Below, in pieces: positions 5,880 to 47,180 of a DNA stretch of 64,000 bases (positions within the stretch are counted from its first letter, which is position 1; every line of letters begins with the position of its first letter). Location: the NCBI GenBank assembly GCA_017399945.1, contig JAFQAQ010000004.1, positions 199,022 to 263,021 on the forward strand, read 5' to 3'. The translations under genes were made by a program, and so were the position numbers. The notes under the pieces are model-generated. The model searched no databases and was not told where the DNA came from. It saw only the letters and a list, made by a program, of their open reading frames with translations. Origin of the DNA: Clostridia bacterium (GTDB lineage Bacteria > Bacillota > Clostridia > Christensenellales > Borkfalkiaceae).

Positions 5880-6800
5880 ATGAAAACTTCTATAATTTTT
5901 GAATCTACCTTAAAAAATCTTGACACCACGGAAAACGTTTGTAAAACTCTTAAAAAGTCAGGGTTTGACGGTCTTGATTATAGCATTTGCGAAAATTGGG
6001 CAGAAATCCCATCTATCTTTAACAATCCCCGTCAGACTTGGGTGGATTTTTTCAAAGAACAAAGACGAATTATCGAGGGCGAAGGGTTAAACGTTTTTCA
6101 AACACACGCCACTTTGCCTTCGGATTTCGATTATGATAATCCACACCAATTTAGTAAAAAGGTGCTTGACCAACTTAAACGTGAAATAGAGGCTACTGCA
6201 ATTTTAGGCAGTAAATATATCGTTATTCACCCAATAAATTCAATCGTTTGCCCTTACGGAAAACCTATCGACCAAGATGCAAAACAAAGGGACTATGAAA
6301 TAAACATGAAAGAGTTTTCTAAACTTAGACCTACCCTTTTAGAGTTTGGCGTTAAAAACGGCGTGGAAGATATGTTTACTTTTGATAAAGATTGTGGGTG
6401 TTACGTTCAAACGGGTTGTTCCACCCCGCAAGATATGATAAAATACGTTGACGGGCTAAACGATAGAAATGCTTTTTGCGCTTGCCTAGACACAGGGCAC
6501 GTTTATATGCACAATATTCAACCTGCACAAGCCGTTAGAGAACTTGGTGATAGAATTGAACTTTTGCATATTCACGATAATAGAGGTGGAATTGACTCTC
6601 ACCTAATTCCCGGTCTTGGATATACCGATTGGCAAGATTTTGCAAAAGCTCTTAAAGAAATTGATTATAAGGGCGCGCTTAGTTTGGAATTATCTTTTTA
6701 TTCTGCATTAAAGCAGTTCGGAAAAGATTATTTGTATAAATATTTAGACCTTGCTGGTTATAGCGTAAAACGTTTAGCCGAGATGGTTGAAAAAGCATAA
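5880..6800 (+). CDS. sugar phosphate isomerase/epimerase, tandem paralog of the preceding gene
   Basis: 306 aa. It shares the FKEQR.IEGEGL.V.QTHAT, I(V/L)HPI, CLDTGH and LHIHDN blocks with 4955..5875. Confidence 0.75.
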   Translation: MKTSIIFESTLKNLDTTENVCKTLKKSGFDGLDYSICENWAEIPSIFNNPRQTWVDFFKEQRRIIEGEGLNVFQTHATLPSDFDYDNPHQFSKKVLDQLKREIEATAILGSKYIVIHPINSIVCPYGKPIDQDAKQRDYEINMKEFSKLRPTLLEFGVKNGVEDMFTFDKDCGCYVQTGCSTPQDMIKYVDGLNDRNAFCACLDTGHVYMHNIQPAQAVRELGDRIELLHIHDNRGGIDSHLIPGLGYTDWQDFAKALKEIDYKGALSLELSFYSALKQFGKDYLYKYLDLAGYSVKRLAEMVEKA

Positions 6801-6806
6801 TAAACC

Positions 6807-7158
6807 AAAAAACACTCCGCTTGTCGCTCTTCCCGTAGGGAATTGCGACAACTAAATAAATCCGTGAACGGATTTGTTAGATTTGCTTACGCAAGTTATA
6901 TTGCCTATCGGCAGTTATATTCGCCTACGGCGAGTTAAGGATTTATTTAATATAACTGCGACTGCAAGTCGCAATCTAACGCAAAACTTGTTTTGCATAT
7001 CACTTTTAGCCACAAGGCTAAAAATATAACTATATTAACCTAATCTTTTGTGGTAAAGATAAAGCCCACCATATTTCGCTTTTTGCGAAGTATAGTGGGC
7101 TACACTTTTGTCTTAAAGTAAAAATCCCTAAGAGTGACGCCCTTTCGGAGTGTTTTTT
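6807..7158 (+). ncRNA. candidate structured RNA, or a REP/BIME- or MITE-like hairpin array, closed by a 13-bp helix
   Basis: AAAAAACACTCCG (6807-6819) is perfectly complementary to CGGAGTGTTTTTT (7146-7158). At least 10 local GC-cored hairpins lie inside (6821-6851, 6857-6876, 6881-6896, 6901-6914, 6920-6934, 6957-6973, 6981-6996, 7004-7023, 7064-7100, 7104-7119). All G-T wobble pairs occur on the plus strand. No ORF of 60 aa or more is present. Confidence 0.45.
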
Positions 7159-7181
7159 CTTTTGTTTATTTTTAATAATCT

Positions 7182-8129
7182 TTAATAATCGCCGATTGCA
7201 AGGGCAAGAGCTGCGTAGTCGCCAATGTTTTCAGATAGTCCTGCCGGAAGCACTTCAACCACGCTTAGACTATACGACAAACACTCTTTTTTCATTACTT
7301 TTATTGCGTGTGGGTATAGTAAATCGTGCGAACGCATATATACCCCGCCGATAACGATTTTTTGTGGGTTTATAACGTCTACTAGAATACTTAACGTTCT
7401 GCCTAGCATTATACCACTTTTTCTATAAACTGCCTTGCAAAATTCGTTGCCTAGTCTTGCGTGTTCGGCAATGGTTTTTGCCGAGATTTCGTCGCCAACG
7501 GCTTTTTTATACTCTTCAAAACTATCTTTATAACGTTTTTGTTTTGCTATAATTAAAGCAAGTCTTGCTATGCCAGAGCCACTGCAATATCCTTCGCAAG
7601 AACCGTGTTTATAATAACCCAAAGGACCGCTTGCCGTTAGTCTTACGTGACCGATTTCGCCTGCGTTGTCGTTTTGACCGGAGTATAGTTTTCCGTCTAA
7701 TATAAGACCTGCGCCAAAACCCGTGCCGAAAGTTAAAAACACAACGTTATCACTACCCTTTCCCGCACCGAATTTCCATTCGGCAACGGCGCACGCGTTC
7801 GCGTCGTTTTGTAAATAGGTTTTGATATTGAATTTGTTTTCAAAATATTCAACGATATGGATATCGTCCCATAAAGGCAAACTTGGGGGGCGCATAATTA
7901 TTCCCCTTTTGCTATCTAGTGGCCCACCACAAGAGATGCCTATGCCTTGTATTTGTTTGTCTTTTAGATGTTTTTCGATAAAAGCTGAAAACTTTTCTAG
8001 TATGACCGTTGGGTTTTGACCTGCCGTTAAAAAGTATTCTTTATCTTGTATAATTGGTAAACTTTCGGTTGCTTTTCCGAGAGTTGCCGCGCATTTAGTT
8101 CCGCCGATATCTAAGCCGATGTAATACAT
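7182..8129 (-). CDS. ROK family sugar kinase
   Basis: 315 aa. N-terminal GLDIGGTK ATP-binding motif and a Cys-containing ROK signature region (HGSCEGYCSGSG). Confidence 0.8.
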   Translation of the reverse strand: MYYIGLDIGGTKCAATLGKATESLPIIQDKEYFLTAGQNPTVILEKFSAFIEKHLKDKQIQGIGISCGGPLDSKRGIIMRPPSLPLWDDIHIVEYFENKFNIKTYLQNDANACAVAEWKFGAGKGSDNVVFLTFGTGFGAGLILDGKLYSGQNDNAGEIGHVRLTASGPLGYYKHGSCEGYCSGSGIARLALIIAKQKRYKDSFEEYKKAVGDEISAKTIAEHARLGNEFCKAVYRKSGIMLGRTLSILVDVINPQKIVIGGVYMRSHDLLYPHAIKVMKKECLSYSLSVVEVLPAGLSENIGDYAALALAIGDY

Positions 8130-9659: not shown

Positions 9660-9784
9660 TGGTGTGAAGGATGGGACTTTCGCTCTGTGACGACCATACC
9701 CGCAAAACAGTCCACTGGACTGTTTTTCCGCCCTTGGCGGACACGCAAACAAGTTTGCTAGCTCCCTATTCAAGTCCCATCCAC
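9660..9784 (-). ncRNA. tRNA-Leu-3'-end-derived chimeric element (candidate ncRNA or integration/duplication scar)
   Basis: The 3' 20 nt (9660-9679) are identical to the 3' end of tRNA-Leu, including CCA. An inverted copy of the T-arm segment (9772-9782) pairs with 9669-9679 over 11 bp. Three perfect internal hairpins lie at 9704-9726, 9727-9741 and 9745-9758. The element has its own terminator copy. Confidence 0.4.
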
Positions 9785-9825: not shown

Positions 9826-9908
9826 TGGTGTGAAGGATGGGACTTGAACCCACACGGATAACCATACGCCCCTCAAACGTACGCGTCTGCCAATTCCGCC
9901 ACCCTCAC
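9826..9908 (-). tRNA. tRNA-Leu (anticodon GAG), type II with long variable arm and encoded CCA
   Basis: The reverse complement reads GTGAGGGTGGCGGAATTGGCAGACGCGTACGTTTGAGGGGCGTATGGTTATCCGTGTGGGTTCAAGTCCCATCCTTCACACCA. It folds by hand into a 7-bp acceptor stem, a D-loop with GG, an anticodon stem TACGT/GCGTA with loop TTGAGGG, a variable-arm hairpin and a GTGGG-TTCAAGT-CCCAT T-arm. Confidence 0.9.
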
Positions 9909-16182: not shown

Positions 16183-16213
16183 AAAAAACCTTTGGTAATT
16201 CCAAAGGTTTTTT
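16183..16213. terminator. bidirectional intrinsic terminator between convergent genes
   Basis: AAAAAA-CCTTTGG-TAATT-CCAAAGG-TTTTTT. Confidence 0.8.
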
Positions 16214-24679: not shown

Positions 24680-26649
24680 TAAAACACCTGACTGCCGTCT
24701 TCTATATCGCGTTCGGGAGTAAGGAATGCTAGTTCGCCTTTATCGTTTTCAGCGCAAACTATCATACCTTCACTCATAATTCCACATAGTTTGCAAGGCT
24801 TTAAGTTGGTTACCATCATCAACTTTTTGCCGATTAAGTATTCGGGAGAGTATGCTAGCGCTATACCACTTACTACCGTTCTGGTTTCTTCGCCTAGTTG
24901 GACGGTTAGTTTTAATAACTTTTTGCTTTTTTCAATCTTTTCACATGCAATTACTTTTGCTATTTTTAGTTGTACCTTTGCAAAATCGTCTATTTCTATT
25001 TGTGGTTTAAGAGAATGATCGTGTAATTGTACTTGTGGTTTTGCTTGTTCTTTATTTTTTTCTTCTATCATTTTGTTTACTTGTTCCATAACCTTTGCTG
25101 AATCTAAACGCGCGAATAATATTTCGGGAGTTGCAGTAACTTTTGTGGTTTCGGTTAAACCGAACTTATCTAAATCTTGATAATCTCTTGCAGTTACACC
25201 TAGCATATCAAAGGCTTTTTTGCAGGTGTCTGGAATAAACGGAGTTAAAAGCGCCAATCCAATGGATAAGGTTTCTACTAGATTGTATAAAACGGTTGCT
25301 AGTCTGCCCCTGTTGCTTTCTTCCTTGGCAAGCACCCAAGGCGCAGTTTCGTCTATATATTTGTTTGCTCTACGGAAAATACTCATAATCTCGCTAATTG
25401 CGTCGGATATTTTGTATTCGCCCATTTTTTTGCTTACTTTTGCATAAGCAGAGGTAGCAACGTCTTTAAGTTCTTGGTCGATAGCTTCTTTTACGTTGGT
25501 GTTTTCCACCTTGCCGTCGAAATACTTGTTGCTCATAGCAATCGTACGGCTAACCAAGTTGCCGAATACGTTTGCTAAATCGCTGTTGATGGTTTCGATA
25601 ACGCTTTCCCAAGTAATAATTCCGTCGTTATCGTGTGGCATTGCCGTTAGAACGTAGTATCTTACGGCGTCCTTTCCAAAGAATTTTACTAAATCGTCGG
25701 CGTAGATAACGTTGCCTTTGGATTTACTCATCTTTCCGCCTTCTTGAAGTAGCCATCCGTGACCGTATACTTGCTTTGGAAGGGGGATATCCAGTGCCAT
25801 CAAAAAGATAGGCCAGTAAATAGTGTGGAATCTTACTATGTCCTTTCCAACCACGTGTACGTTACACGGCCAATAGTCTTTATAAAGTTGGTCGTCGTTA
25901 CCGTCTGCCGTATATCCAAGACCGGTTATATAATTAGTCAACGCGTCAAGCCAAACGTATACGACGTGTTTATCGTCAAAATCAACGGGAATTCCCCACT
26001 TAAAAGAACTTCTCGAAACGCATAAATCTTGTAAACCTGGTTTTAAAAAGTTGTTTACCATTTCGTTCTTGCGGGAAACGGGCACGATAAAATCAGGGTT
26101 ATCTTCGTAATATTTCATCAAGCGGTCTGCGTATTTGCTCATTTTGAAGAAATACGCTTCTTCGTTGGCTTTTTTAACTTCTCTACCACAATCGGGGCAT
26201 TTGCCGTCTTTTAGTTGGCTTTCCGTCCAAAAAGATTCGCAAGGGGTGCAATACCAACCTTCGTACGAGCCCTTGTATATATCCCCTTGTTCGTATAGTT
26301 TTTTGAATATTCTTTGCACGGTCTTTACGTGGTCATTATCGGTAGTTCTTATAAACTTATCGTAAGAAACGCCCACCATATCCCAAATATCACGAATTTC
26401 GCTAGCAACGCCGTCAACGAATTGTTGGGGCGTTTTGTTTGCGTTTTTTGCCTTTTCTTCAATCTTTTGACCGTGTTCGTCCGTGCCCGTTTGGAATCTT
26501 ACGTCGTAACCGTCAAGCCTATAAAAACGAGCCATGCTATCGGCTAAAATCGCTTCGTACGTGTTGCCGATATGCGGTTTTCCGGACGTGTATGCTATCG
26601 CTGTGGTTATATAATATTTGCCTTTCAAATTCGTCACCTCTAAGTGCAT
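24679..26649 (-). CDS. metG: methionine--tRNA ligase with C-terminal tRNA-binding (EMAP/Trbp111-like) domain
   Basis: 656 aa. The KPHIGN (HIGH-type) motif, a CPDCG zinc knuckle, KMSKSKGN and a C-terminal OB domain. Confidence 0.93.
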   Translation of the reverse strand: MHLEVTNLKGKYYITTAIAYTSGKPHIGNTYEAILADSMARFYRLDGYDVRFQTGTDEHGQKIEEKAKNANKTPQQFVDGVASEIRDIWDMVGVSYDKFIRTTDNDHVKTVQRIFKKLYEQGDIYKGSYEGWYCTPCESFWTESQLKDGKCPDCGREVKKANEEAYFFKMSKYADRLMKYYEDNPDFIVPVSRKNEMVNNFLKPGLQDLCVSRSSFKWGIPVDFDDKHVVYVWLDALTNYITGLGYTADGNDDQLYKDYWPCNVHVVGKDIVRFHTIYWPIFLMALDIPLPKQVYGHGWLLQEGGKMSKSKGNVIYADDLVKFFGKDAVRYYVLTAMPHDNDGIITWESVIETINSDLANVFGNLVSRTIAMSNKYFDGKVENTNVKEAIDQELKDVATSAYAKVSKKMGEYKISDAISEIMSIFRRANKYIDETAPWVLAKEESNRGRLATVLYNLVETLSIGLALLTPFIPDTCKKAFDMLGVTARDYQDLDKFGLTETTKVTATPEILFARLDSAKVMEQVNKMIEEKNKEQAKPQVQLHDHSLKPQIEIDDFAKVQLKIAKVIACEKIEKSKKLLKLTVQLGEETRTVVSGIALAYSPEYLIGKKLMMVTNLKPCKLCGIMSEGMIVCAENDKGELAFLTPERDIEDGSQVF

Positions 26650-27776: not shown

Positions 27777-27823
27777 AAAAAAGGCTTTGCTAAACCTAGC
27801 AAAGCCTTTAAGTTTTTCGTTTA

Positions 27824-33634: not shown

Positions 33635-33677
33635 ACGCCACGGCAGTTGCCGTGGCGTTTTCGTTTTGTTTTTTTAG
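33635..33677 (+). terminator. intrinsic terminator
   Basis: ACGCCACGGCA-GT-TGCCGTGGCGT (11-bp stem) followed by TTTCGTTTTGTTTTTTT. Confidence 0.85.
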
Positions 33678-36461: not shown

Positions 36462-36491
36462 AAAAAACCACGCGTTTTTGCGTGGTTTTTT
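36462..36491. terminator. bidirectional intrinsic terminator downstream of fumC
   Basis: AAAAAA-CCACGC-GTTTTT-GCGTGG-TTTTTT. Confidence 0.8.
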
Positions 36492-46809: not shown

Positions 46810-47180
46810 CCTTTTTCTCCTTTTGCTATTTCCAAAAATAGTTTGTCCATCTTGTCGCCGTATTCCATAGAACCGTCTAGTATAAAATGCAGTTCGGGTA
46901 CGGTTCTTGCACGGCTTGTTTTAGCAAGCTCGTATCTTATGCGTTTCGCGTCTTCTTTAATAGCTAAAAAAGTGCGCCCACTTTTTTCTTTATCAGTAGA
47001 ATATACGCTTATAAAAACGTTTGCGTGCGAAAGGTCTTTAGAAACGTCCACGTTAGTTACCGAAAACATTTCAGTTACCAACGGGTTTTTAAGTTTGCGA
47101 GAGATTATTTCGTACACTTCCCTTTGAATTTCACCTGATAATCTTTGGTTTCTTGGGATTTTGTTAGTTGGTCTTTTCAT
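46806..47180 (-). CDS. rbfA: ribosome-binding factor A
   Basis: 124 aa. Position after infB and an RbfA-like KH-fold pattern (VTNVDVSKDLSHANVFIS). Confidence 0.85.
   Translation of the reverse strand: MKRPTNKIPRNQRLSGEIQREVYEIISRKLKNPLVTEMFSVTNVDVSKDLSHANVFISVYSTDKEKSGRTFLAIKEDAKRIRYELAKTSRARTVPELHFILDGSMEYGDKMDKLFLEIAKGEKG

Follow-up and report, generated by a model that had tools for sequence, protein, structure and literature searches.

A palindrome-rich repeat element inserted at the apex of a bidirectional transcription terminator in a Clostridia bacterium

The DNA analysed here, referred to as the window, is a stretch of 64,000 nt from contig JAFQAQ010000004.1 of a Clostridia bacterium (assembly GCA_017399945.1, positions 199,022 to 263,021 of the forward strand), and the subject of this report is the 352-nt segment at its positions 6807-7158, which holds an inserted non-coding repeat element. 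On the left of this segment is the gene for a xylose-isomerase-like TIM-barrel protein (5880-6800, plus strand) and on its right is a ROK kinase gene (7182-8129, minus strand), and these two genes are convergent. An earlier account made from the sequence alone, here called the sequence-only reading, had described the segment as ten hairpins, H1 to H10, closed by a perfect 13-bp helix. When this was examined it was found that AAAAAACACTCCG (6807-6819) and CGGAGTGTTTTTT (7146-7158) are perfectly complementary over 13 bp and that each of the ten hairpins folds where it had been placed. Comparison with dinucleotide shuffles, which that reading had proposed as a check, put the real minimum free energy (MFE) far below the shuffled values on both strands: on the plus strand it was -129.8 kcal/mol compared to -72.2 +/- 4.9 kcal/mol in the shuffles (z = -11.8; none of 100 shuffles was equally good), and on the minus strand it was -132.6 kcal/mol (z = -11.0). 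The segment has the highest hairpin density anywhere in the window, and it holds no open reading frame (ORF) of 60 amino acids (aa) or more, as had been claimed, the longest being 51 aa. The feature is real and strongly non-random, but it does not represent a new plus-strand structured RNA with a closing helix of its own.

Evidence on the nature of the helix came from alleles that are without the element. In L136 and L139, two metagenome contigs from two samples, the same convergent genes are separated by a 58-nt spacer that reads AAAAAACACTCC-AAAA-CGGAGTGTTTTTT, or in its wider context ...AAACCAAAAAACACTCC-AAAA-CGGAGTGTTTTTTCTTTTG..., and both of its sides are 100% identical to the window up to the hairpin. 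The ROK protein of L136 (P0001) is 99% identical to that of the window and the isomerase-like variant of L139 (P0121), which is also on L136's contig, is identical to that of the window at 305 of 306 residues. L135, whose ROK protein has 84% identity, is also empty and has the loop GATTT. The filled sites are those of the window, L005, and L006, the last two having an identical element on contigs that encode the same isomerase-like protein, and three other contigs (L001, L003, and L004) end inside the element. Because the empty alleles carry the helix without the element, the closing helix is the stem of a host terminator and not that of the element. Thus, approximately 320 nt have been inserted at the apex of a bidirectional terminator that was already there and is common to the isomerase-like and ROK genes. 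This 13-bp helix has what a bidirectional intrinsic terminator has, namely an A-run, a GC-rich stem, a short loop, a T-run, and convergent genes. Both of its arms lie outside the element: the left arm (A-run and stem, 6807-6819) is unchanged to CACTCC in L136 and L139 and pairs there over a 4-5-nt loop with the right arm (stem and T-run, 7146-7158), which is 100% identical in the empty alleles. The sequence-only reading had likened the helix to a textbook bidirectional terminator, and that is what it is in the empty alleles, where it existed before the insertion; what did not stand is that the helix forms part of a structured RNA.

The ROK homologues that are about 80% identical (P0003, P0004, and P0006) are in another gene context (ROK-SIS) and were uninformative for the comparison of filled and empty sites. 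A scan of metagenomes for other empty alleles of this terminator gave 55 unrelated terminators with the same stem and none with the flanks of the window. These 55 matches to the pattern AAAAACACTCC-N3-8-GGAGTGTTTTTTC (24 fixed bases), which are on the unrelated contigs L141-L195, are far above the expectation for a random 24-mer, presumably because palindromes made of an A-run, a stem, and a T-run are so constrained. The window itself has five more intact hairpins of this A-run/stem/T-run type with stems of 10-13 bp. Those at 16183-16213, 27780-27809, and 33635-33658 are at other convergent junctions and are unoccupied sites of the kind that is used, and the other two are at 36462-36491 and 46966-46987.

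The inserted element is at 6823-7142 on the plus strand, and when a hidden Markov model built from 25 sibling copies was run against the window with nhmmer it matched 6823-7140 (E = 6.3e-94). Between the left arm and the element is the junction CTT (6820-6822), and between the element and the right arm is the junction TTT (7143-7145); TT at 6821-6822 and TT at 7143-7144 make up a candidate 2-bp target duplication, which is suggestive only. The element starts with H1 (6823-6851, plus strand, -16.5 kcal/mol), a two-tier terminal hairpin whose 5' arm also serves as the terminal inverted repeat on the left (GTCGCTCT...TAGGGA). This arm pairs with the right end in the MFE fold, 6822-6830 with 7131-7139 and 6836-6841 with 7125-7130. 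The terminal inverted repeats are imperfect, with 14 bp (6823-6830 with 7131-7138 and 6836-6841 with 7125-7130) and a 5-nt bulge. H1 is followed by the invariant TAAATAAATCC (6853-6863, plus strand; 11 invariant pairs in the 25 copies), which is complementary to 6868-6878, whereby H2 is formed, and also to the central GGATTTATTTA (inverted repeats I8 and I10). The forward hairpin units (6849-6934, plus strand), which resemble the Rfam family Gut-1, are H2 (6857-6876), H3 (6881-6896), H4 (6901-6914), and H5 (6920-6934), and their linkers at 6876-6882, 6895-6901, and 6914-6920 are GTTAGAT or GTTATAT. The orientation of the units switches at the AT-rich centre, TTAAGGATTTATTTAATATAACT (6935-6957), which is nearly invariant in the 25 copies although these are from different species. 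The reverse units (6957-7030, minus strand) are H6 (6957-6973), H7 (6981-6996), and the conserved H8 (7004-7023), with ATCTAAC, ATATCAC, and ATATAAC as linkers; the linkers of the reverse half (6950-7030) are the exact reverse complement of the forward ones, as with the minus-strand GTTATAT at 6950-6956 and 7024-7030. The interior is thereby ordered more regularly than the sequence-only reading had described. Next is H9 (7063-7101), a conserved GC-rich hairpin of 15-17 bp (-23.0 and -22.8 kcal/mol on the two strands), then H10 (7104-7119), which is weak (-1.1 kcal/mol) and differs in sequence among copies, and finally the right terminal inverted repeat, AATCCCTAAGAGTGAC and GCCC (7122-7142, plus strand; inverted repeat I15), which pairs with the 5' arm of H1 as described above. 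A pseudoknot between the H8 loop (CCACAA) and a downstream TTGTGG was considered and rejected, there being 2 compensated variants compared to about 14 uncompensated ones.

H9 carries the 17-mer AGCCCACCATATTTCGC, and when this was used as the probe against one genome per species (596 Gb) at least 120 stretches were retrieved, and about 104 of those listed were real copies. In 596 Gb a 17-mer should match about 70 times by chance, and the matches in cyanobacteria and proteobacteria were of that kind. Among the matches listed, the real copies were in more than 50 metagenome-assembled genomes (MAGs) of Christensenellaceae, Pumilibacteraceae, and "Clostridia", as many as 7 in a single MAG and in very many cases at the end of a contig; the hosts whose guts they came from were sheep, goat, yak, deer, and human. 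The count of copies, which the sequence-only reading had named as the test for a repeat, therefore came to more than 100 dispersed family copies in gut MAGs, while no second copy was found in the 64-kb window by blastn-short or nhmmer. A 19-nt match at 26363 was due to chance and lies inside a coding sequence.

The family layout starts with a terminal hairpin, and the ends are imperfect inverted repeats; forward units with GTKATAT linkers come next, then the AT-rich centre, which is invariant, reverse units with ATATMAC linkers, and finally two hairpins that are conserved. The members are about 300-450 bp long, with ends that may be written as GTCGCTCTTCCC...AGGGAAT, and conservation across copies begins exactly at H1 and stops about 20 nt after AAAATCCCTA. 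The spacing between two anchor motifs falls in classes of about 200, 210, 226-254, and 314-341 nt because the number of hairpin units and of optional modules differs. An optional module of about 38 nt (…GTTGGCGTTCGCTACGCTCGGCTAAAC…), which has no obvious hairpin, is present in the forward orientation in L008, L015, L039, L040, and L056, and in reverse in L049 and L057. Three subfamilies could be told apart by their H1 and, mirror-wise, by their 3' tail, the subfamily-specific 3' ends mirroring the subfamily-specific H1.

Parts of the element were also seen in other settings. L075 (4100-4300, minus strand) has a standalone tandem array of about 10 units, each a GTKATAT linker and a 4-6-bp stem, that passes the Gut-1 threshold; it is without the element's ends, centre, H8, and H9 and lies between aldolase and thymidylate synthase genes. 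Evidently, arrays of units can exist and expand on their own. L063 (249-307) has H9 alone as a perfect palindrome (AGCCCACCATATTTCGC-GCAAT-GCGAAATATGGTGGGCT), with A-run and T-run flanks like those of an ordinary bidirectional terminator. In L002 (1912-2300), when compared to 6800-7190 of the window, the left gene and the left two-thirds of the element are the same, and after about 7027 of the window the right third (H9 is kept and its loop is different), the 3' flank, which is without a matching terminator arm, and the downstream gene are others. Either two copies at different loci seem to have recombined here or the contig seems to be a chimera assembled through the repeat.

Covariation was examined with RNAalifold on an alignment of the 25 copies with 67 pairs, and the controls were 500 shuffles and partners slid by 1-3 columns. 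In this alignment 98.3% of the cells were paired, and the number of pairs that had changed on both sides was 16 compared to 9.6 +/- 1.4 in the shuffles, none of which reached 16, and 0-3 in the slid controls. There were 92 double-change cells and few single-side changes. In the H1 stem the changes are between subfamilies (UA/CG 14:11 and 14:10, CG/UA 14:9), and because much of the covariation separates subfamilies it represents few independent events. Judged from the alignment, hairpins H1, H3, H5, and H6, the stems of which covary, are clearly maintained, and H8, H9, and the long-range pairing of TAAATAAATCC with GGATTTATTTA are invariant across it.

The sequence-only reading had argued from G-T pairs that are wobbles on the plus strand for selection on a plus-strand RNA. 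Such pairs were found in H2, H3, and H9; the argument built on them was not upheld. Interior G.U pairs in the copies were as frequent on one strand as on the other (plus, 286 of 2375; minus, 238 of 2228), the mean per-copy difference in MFE was +1.0 kcal/mol in favour of the minus strand, and the energies at the level of the alignment were -72.9 kcal/mol for the plus and -80.3 kcal/mol for the minus strand. There are invariant G.T pairs at the base of the forward units (ATATT-stem-AGTGAT) and the reverse units wobble likewise on the other strand, and hence the polarity of the G.T pairs belongs to the hairpin unit. The orientation of the element was 44:50 with respect to GC skew and 30:38 with respect to the gene-strand majority, and there was no replication-strand bias. 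Since folding, G.U pairs, and orientation show no strand asymmetry, the argument for a plus-strand RNA fails.

A search of the window against Rfam at gathering thresholds gave one tRNA and nothing else. This tRNA gene (9829-9908, minus strand, 45.5 bits) adjoins a 10-bp perfect hairpin at 9704-9726 (AAAACAGTCCACTGGACTGTTTT), which is the second-densest hairpin stretch of the window. For ROOL, GOLLD, raiA, OLE, 6S, RNase P, and tmRNA there was no match in 6700-7260 even at E values up to 10; the sequence-only reading had recognised no known RNA family and had been unable to exclude ROOL, GOLLD, and raiA by eye. One family does show a relation: at permissive thresholds Gut-1 (RF01706) matched 6849-6925 on the plus strand over its full length (model 1-77 of 77) with 31.8 bits and E = 2.4e-4. 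This is below the gathering score of 50 bits, because the linkers of the window copy are GUUAUAU/GUUAGAU, and sibling copies reach 50.4-59.6 bits (L015, L083, L008, L075, L085, L009 twice, L040, and L033). The window copy is thus a divergent relative and not a scoring member. Gut-1 was described from human-gut sequences as a probable non-coding RNA and the paper says no more about it (Weinberg et al. 2010, PMC2864571); in Rfam it is filed as Gene; sRNA, rated "certainly RNA", and known only from the human gut. What Gut-1 shares with the element is at least three tandem short hairpins, a conserved GUGAAAU/GUGAUAU linker, and its occurrence in gut Clostridia-type sequences. The three tandem hairpins with a G-U-rich heptamer linker are present in H2-H5, and it is exactly at the forward array that the siblings pass the gathering score. 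The Gut-1 seed sequence BAAZ01000095.1, when inspected with its flanks, has the same overall layout in a GC-richer lineage: a terminal hairpin, forward units GUUAUAUU/GUGAUAUU, a centre ...GCGAAUAUAAUAUCAC, AUAUCAC reverse units, an inverted-repeat tail, and a closing helix of its own, GGGGCUGCCG/CGGCAGCCCC. On the other hand, the Gut-1 model covers 77 nt only, whereas here the match is a sub-part of a mobile element of about 320 nt that has no strand preference; the strand-specific RNA implied by the filing of Gut-1 is not what is seen in G.U pairs, MFE, or orientation. By sequence comparison, Gut-1 appears to be the forward hairpin-unit array, that is, one module of a larger element of this type.

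The filing of Gut-1 as a small RNA (sRNA) raises the alternative that the segment is primarily an sRNA gene, whose product would be a structured, extended form of Gut-1, about 320 nt long and transcribed from the plus strand, with the closing helix as its P1 stem and terminator. The rating in Rfam, the strong covariation of the hairpins together with z = -11.8, and the very high conservation of H8, H9, and the centre across species are all as expected for such a gene. Nevertheless we consider it unlikely, because the closing helix is present without the element in the empty alleles, the G.U pairs and MFE are strand-symmetric, half of the hairpin units are reversed, the element is oriented at random as judged by neighbour genes, GC skew, and gene strand, and there is no conserved sequence 5' of H1 that could be a promoter. 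In a scan of 6600-7400 for promoter and terminator consensus sequences, promoter-like matches were at background (5 compared to 2.4 +/- 1.8) and the only terminator-like match was H2, flagged on both strands.

The location in a terminator is not peculiar to the window. In 39 full copies the pairing between a copy's own 5' and 3' flanks had a median of -15.5 kcal/mol compared to -7.6 kcal/mol for flanks combined across copies (Mann-Whitney p = 2e-9). The closing arms differ between copies, for example AAAACGGACTA/TAGTCCGTTTT and AAAAACCGTAGAA/TTCTACGGTTTTT, and in each the A-run is on the left and the T-run on the right. In copies with arms of at least 9 nt the distances between the element's ends and the two arms are 0-5 nt and 5-9 nt. 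When flank, element, and flank were folded together, the MFE fold had the flanks paired in 31 of the 39 copies for the plus strand and in 37 of them for the minus strand. Among 44 copies with callable neighbours, the genes on the two sides were convergent for 32, tandem for 12 (6:6 as to orientation), and divergent for none; of the 52 gene junctions in the window 5 (about 10%) are convergent. No shared or enriched neighbour protein was found when ORFs of at least 110 aa from 98 loci were clustered, the neighbours being of common housekeeping families only, and the genes between paired copies are those for SDR, DUF1292, RuvX, and PEPCK.

From these data we conclude that 6823-7142 is probably a copy of a non-coding, modular, palindrome-rich repeat of Christensenellales/Clostridia gut bacteria, similar to MITEs, the miniature transposable elements with inverted repeats, and to BOX elements, that lies in the apex of a terminator. 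It is short (about 320 nt), non-coding, and present in more than 100 copies dispersed at non-orthologous loci, it has terminal inverted repeats, though imperfect ones, and close relatives have filled (window, L005, and L006) and empty (L136 and L139) sites. The sequence-only reading had offered an insertion like a REP, BIME, or MITE in a terminator loop as its other option, and the empty allele, the dispersed copies, and the copy-specific closing helices bear this out.

The junctions were also examined for a target duplication. The dinucleotide 5' of G[TC]CG was compared with the one at a fixed offset from the subfamily-specific 3' end, and the two matched in 5 of 5 copies of the GGAACAGC subfamily (TT in four and TA in one), in 5 of 5 of the GAGAC-C group as judged by eye (TA in three and TT in two), and in 13 of 16 of the GGAACNC subfamily (p = 0.045 compared to permuted pairings). 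In the window the junctions are TT/GTCGC...GACGCCC/TT, for which the predicted pre-insertion site is CACTCCG-CTTT-CGGAGTG.

Several observations weigh against this reading of a mobile MITE/BOX-like repeat. The combined p for the 2-bp duplication is about 0.03-0.05, and this match is no more than suggestive, as terminator loops are A/T-rich anyway. The empty loop AAAA does not equal the filled site minus the element, and so there is no clean footprint. No autonomous partner, transposase, or parent insertion sequence (IS) with the same ends was found in the 98 flanking loci (up to 8 kb), in phage and plasmid collections, or in IMG/VR; in the phage and plasmid collections BLAST gave no match to the element either, and in IMG/VR a scan with the 17-mer gave 0 matches and one with a 19-mer gave 2 chance matches in coding sequence. 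Conservation is lower at the termini than in the interior (H8, H9, and the centre), which is the opposite of what a simple transposase-dependent MITE would have and for which the preferred model does not account; this hints at an extra function at the level of sequence, and it is the main reason for considering a sequence-specific function, for example as a protein-binding platform like that of REP/BIME. The likeness of copies within one genome was 0.83 compared to 0.81 between species, so that no recent burst is visible, the nearest neighbour of a copy was in the same MAG for 13 of 73 copies, and few copies were at orthologous loci. As copies within a genome are no closer and few loci are orthologous, the family would either be old and still placed independently in each lineage or be exchanged horizontally. 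Finally, the location at the apex could result partly from selection against insertions that break the stem and not from target choice.

On the plus strand of the window the empty loop is AAAAC (GTTTT on the other strand; L136:1031-1088 and L139:2122-2179 compared to 6813-6821 and 7142-7152 of the window), and it is closer to the inversion (GAAAGC) of the predicted pre-insertion loop GCTTTC, and to the inversion of L135's GATTT. The loop of the palindromic terminator seems to have flipped between alleles. In two pairs of copies from different species, L023/L118 and L025/L107, the orthologous flanking gene is on opposite sides of the element, which is in opposite orientation at apparently the same site; these are either independent insertions into the same terminator or inversions between the terminator arms. 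Such pairs, together with the inverted-looking empty loop, suggest that flipping of the element between inverted arms may occur.

Correia elements of Neisseria and RUP of pneumococcus are bacterial MITEs with a 2-bp duplication. Like the element they are small, non-coding, intergenic, and bounded by terminal inverted repeats, they have filled and empty sites between strains, and the stem-loops formed by their transcripts are long and stable; the element here may have a 2-bp A/T duplication. They differ in that for the element the loci and collections searched yielded no parent IS sharing its ends, its interior is better conserved than its termini, the units form an ordered array of oriented covarying hairpins, the preference for the terminator apex is strong, and the candidate duplication is TA, TT, or AA and not strictly TA. 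BOX of Streptococcus pneumoniae (boxA-boxBn-boxC) is also modular and non-autonomous, with conserved ends that pair and variable internal modules. However, it belongs to a different host clade and is not reported to nest in terminator loops, and the likeness is one of layout. IS1630 inserts in terminators and duplicates the whole inverted repeat. It and IS1397, which inserts in the loops of repetitive extragenic palindromes (REPs) (PMC3184786), are like the element in that they insert into the loop or body of extragenic inverted repeats. Unlike the element they are autonomous ISs with transposase genes, and here it is at the apex that the hairpin is split. A literature search for a described element of such a kind gave nothing beyond Gut-1 and general reviews of repeats.

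REPs and the bacterial interspersed mosaic elements (BIMEs) made of them suggest another explanation, namely that each unit of GTGATAT and a short palindrome is recognised as a single-stranded hairpin by a domesticated HUH/Y1 enzyme, like the REP-associated tyrosine transposases (RAYTs), and that the whole is a BIME-like cluster kept for host functions, for example the protection of mRNA 3' ends or nucleoid-protein binding. The units are polar, with a conserved 5' heptamer, a palindrome, and G.T at the stem base, the forward and reverse arrays recall REP orientation patterns, about 10 units stand in tandem on their own in L075, conservation is higher in the interior than at the ends, and a bias for convergent genes has been reported for REPs (PMC3184786). 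We think this explanation very unlikely. REP/BIME elements and SPRITE, a terminator-like repeat, are among the closest known systems (PMC3184786); in REPs the palindromes are conserved and the linkers vary, whereas here it is the reverse. No Y1 or RAYT gene was seen near any copy in the 98 loci (up to 8 kb), and replication-strand bias is absent. The terminal inverted repeats and the candidate 2-bp duplication point to transposition of double-stranded DNA, and the element, bounded by its inverted repeats, behaves as one insertion unit.

More improbable by far is that the segment belongs to the palindrome-associated elements (PATEs) of the IS200/IS605 type or that it is an orphan scaffold for the guide RNA of a TnpB/IscB system. 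The subterminal hairpins at both ends (H1 and H9) would fit with this, and there was a very weak Rfam match to IS605-orfB-I (11.2 bits, E = 9), which, however, is at the level of noise. The left flanks are variable and no target motif of 4-5 nt is conserved 5' of the left end, the element has terminal inverted repeats, GC skew shows no strand bias (44:50), and no tnpA or tnpB was found in the 98 flanking loci.

Returning to a MITE/BOX-like repeat as the preferred reading, a probable explanation of how such an element spreads is that an enzyme whose gene lies elsewhere moves it in trans. This would probably be a transposase that recognises and binds the ends with their inverted repeats, cuts the A/T-rich loop DNA with a 2-bp stagger, and leaves a 2-bp A/T duplication. 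It would be tolerated, and perhaps favoured, by being nearly harmless where it is placed: each internal segment would fold locally on either strand, and the host arms would then re-pair beside the A and T runs. H2 would stop transcripts from the left gene and H9 those from the right gene. H9 may be regarded as terminator-like for the latter because a T-rich run, TTTATCTTT in the window and TTTTCTTATCC in most copies, comes after it on the minus strand. In this way termination and 3'-end protection of both convergent mRNAs would be kept. A bolder proposal, which we regard as doubtful, is that Gut-1-type arrays are a distinct class of mobile DNA that homes to the terminator apex by structure (hairpin or cruciform) and whose units and core are selected for a function of their own. 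If true, this function of the covarying units and the invariant core (centre, H8, and H9) would be to rebuild a two-way terminator and 3'-end protector or to serve as a platform to which a conserved protein binds, and the element would then be more than just tolerated.

The points of interest in this finding are the reinterpretation of Gut-1, the niche in the terminator apex, and the arrays of oriented covarying units. Gut-1, an orphan family in Rfam, gains a genomic identity, as it is apparently a module of a repeat that is common in Christensenellales/Clostridia of the human and ruminant gut. For the discovery of RNA motifs there is a caution in that strong covariation and extreme folding z-scores can stem from a mobile element that is palindromic at the DNA level and is neutral as to strand. 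These elements also break metagenome assemblies, as is seen from the copies at contig ends, and may drive rearrangements, as the recombinant-looking L002 suggests. A family at the terminator apex in which both strands refold is a test case for the tolerance of terminators to insertion and for the choice of safe sites in compact genomes.

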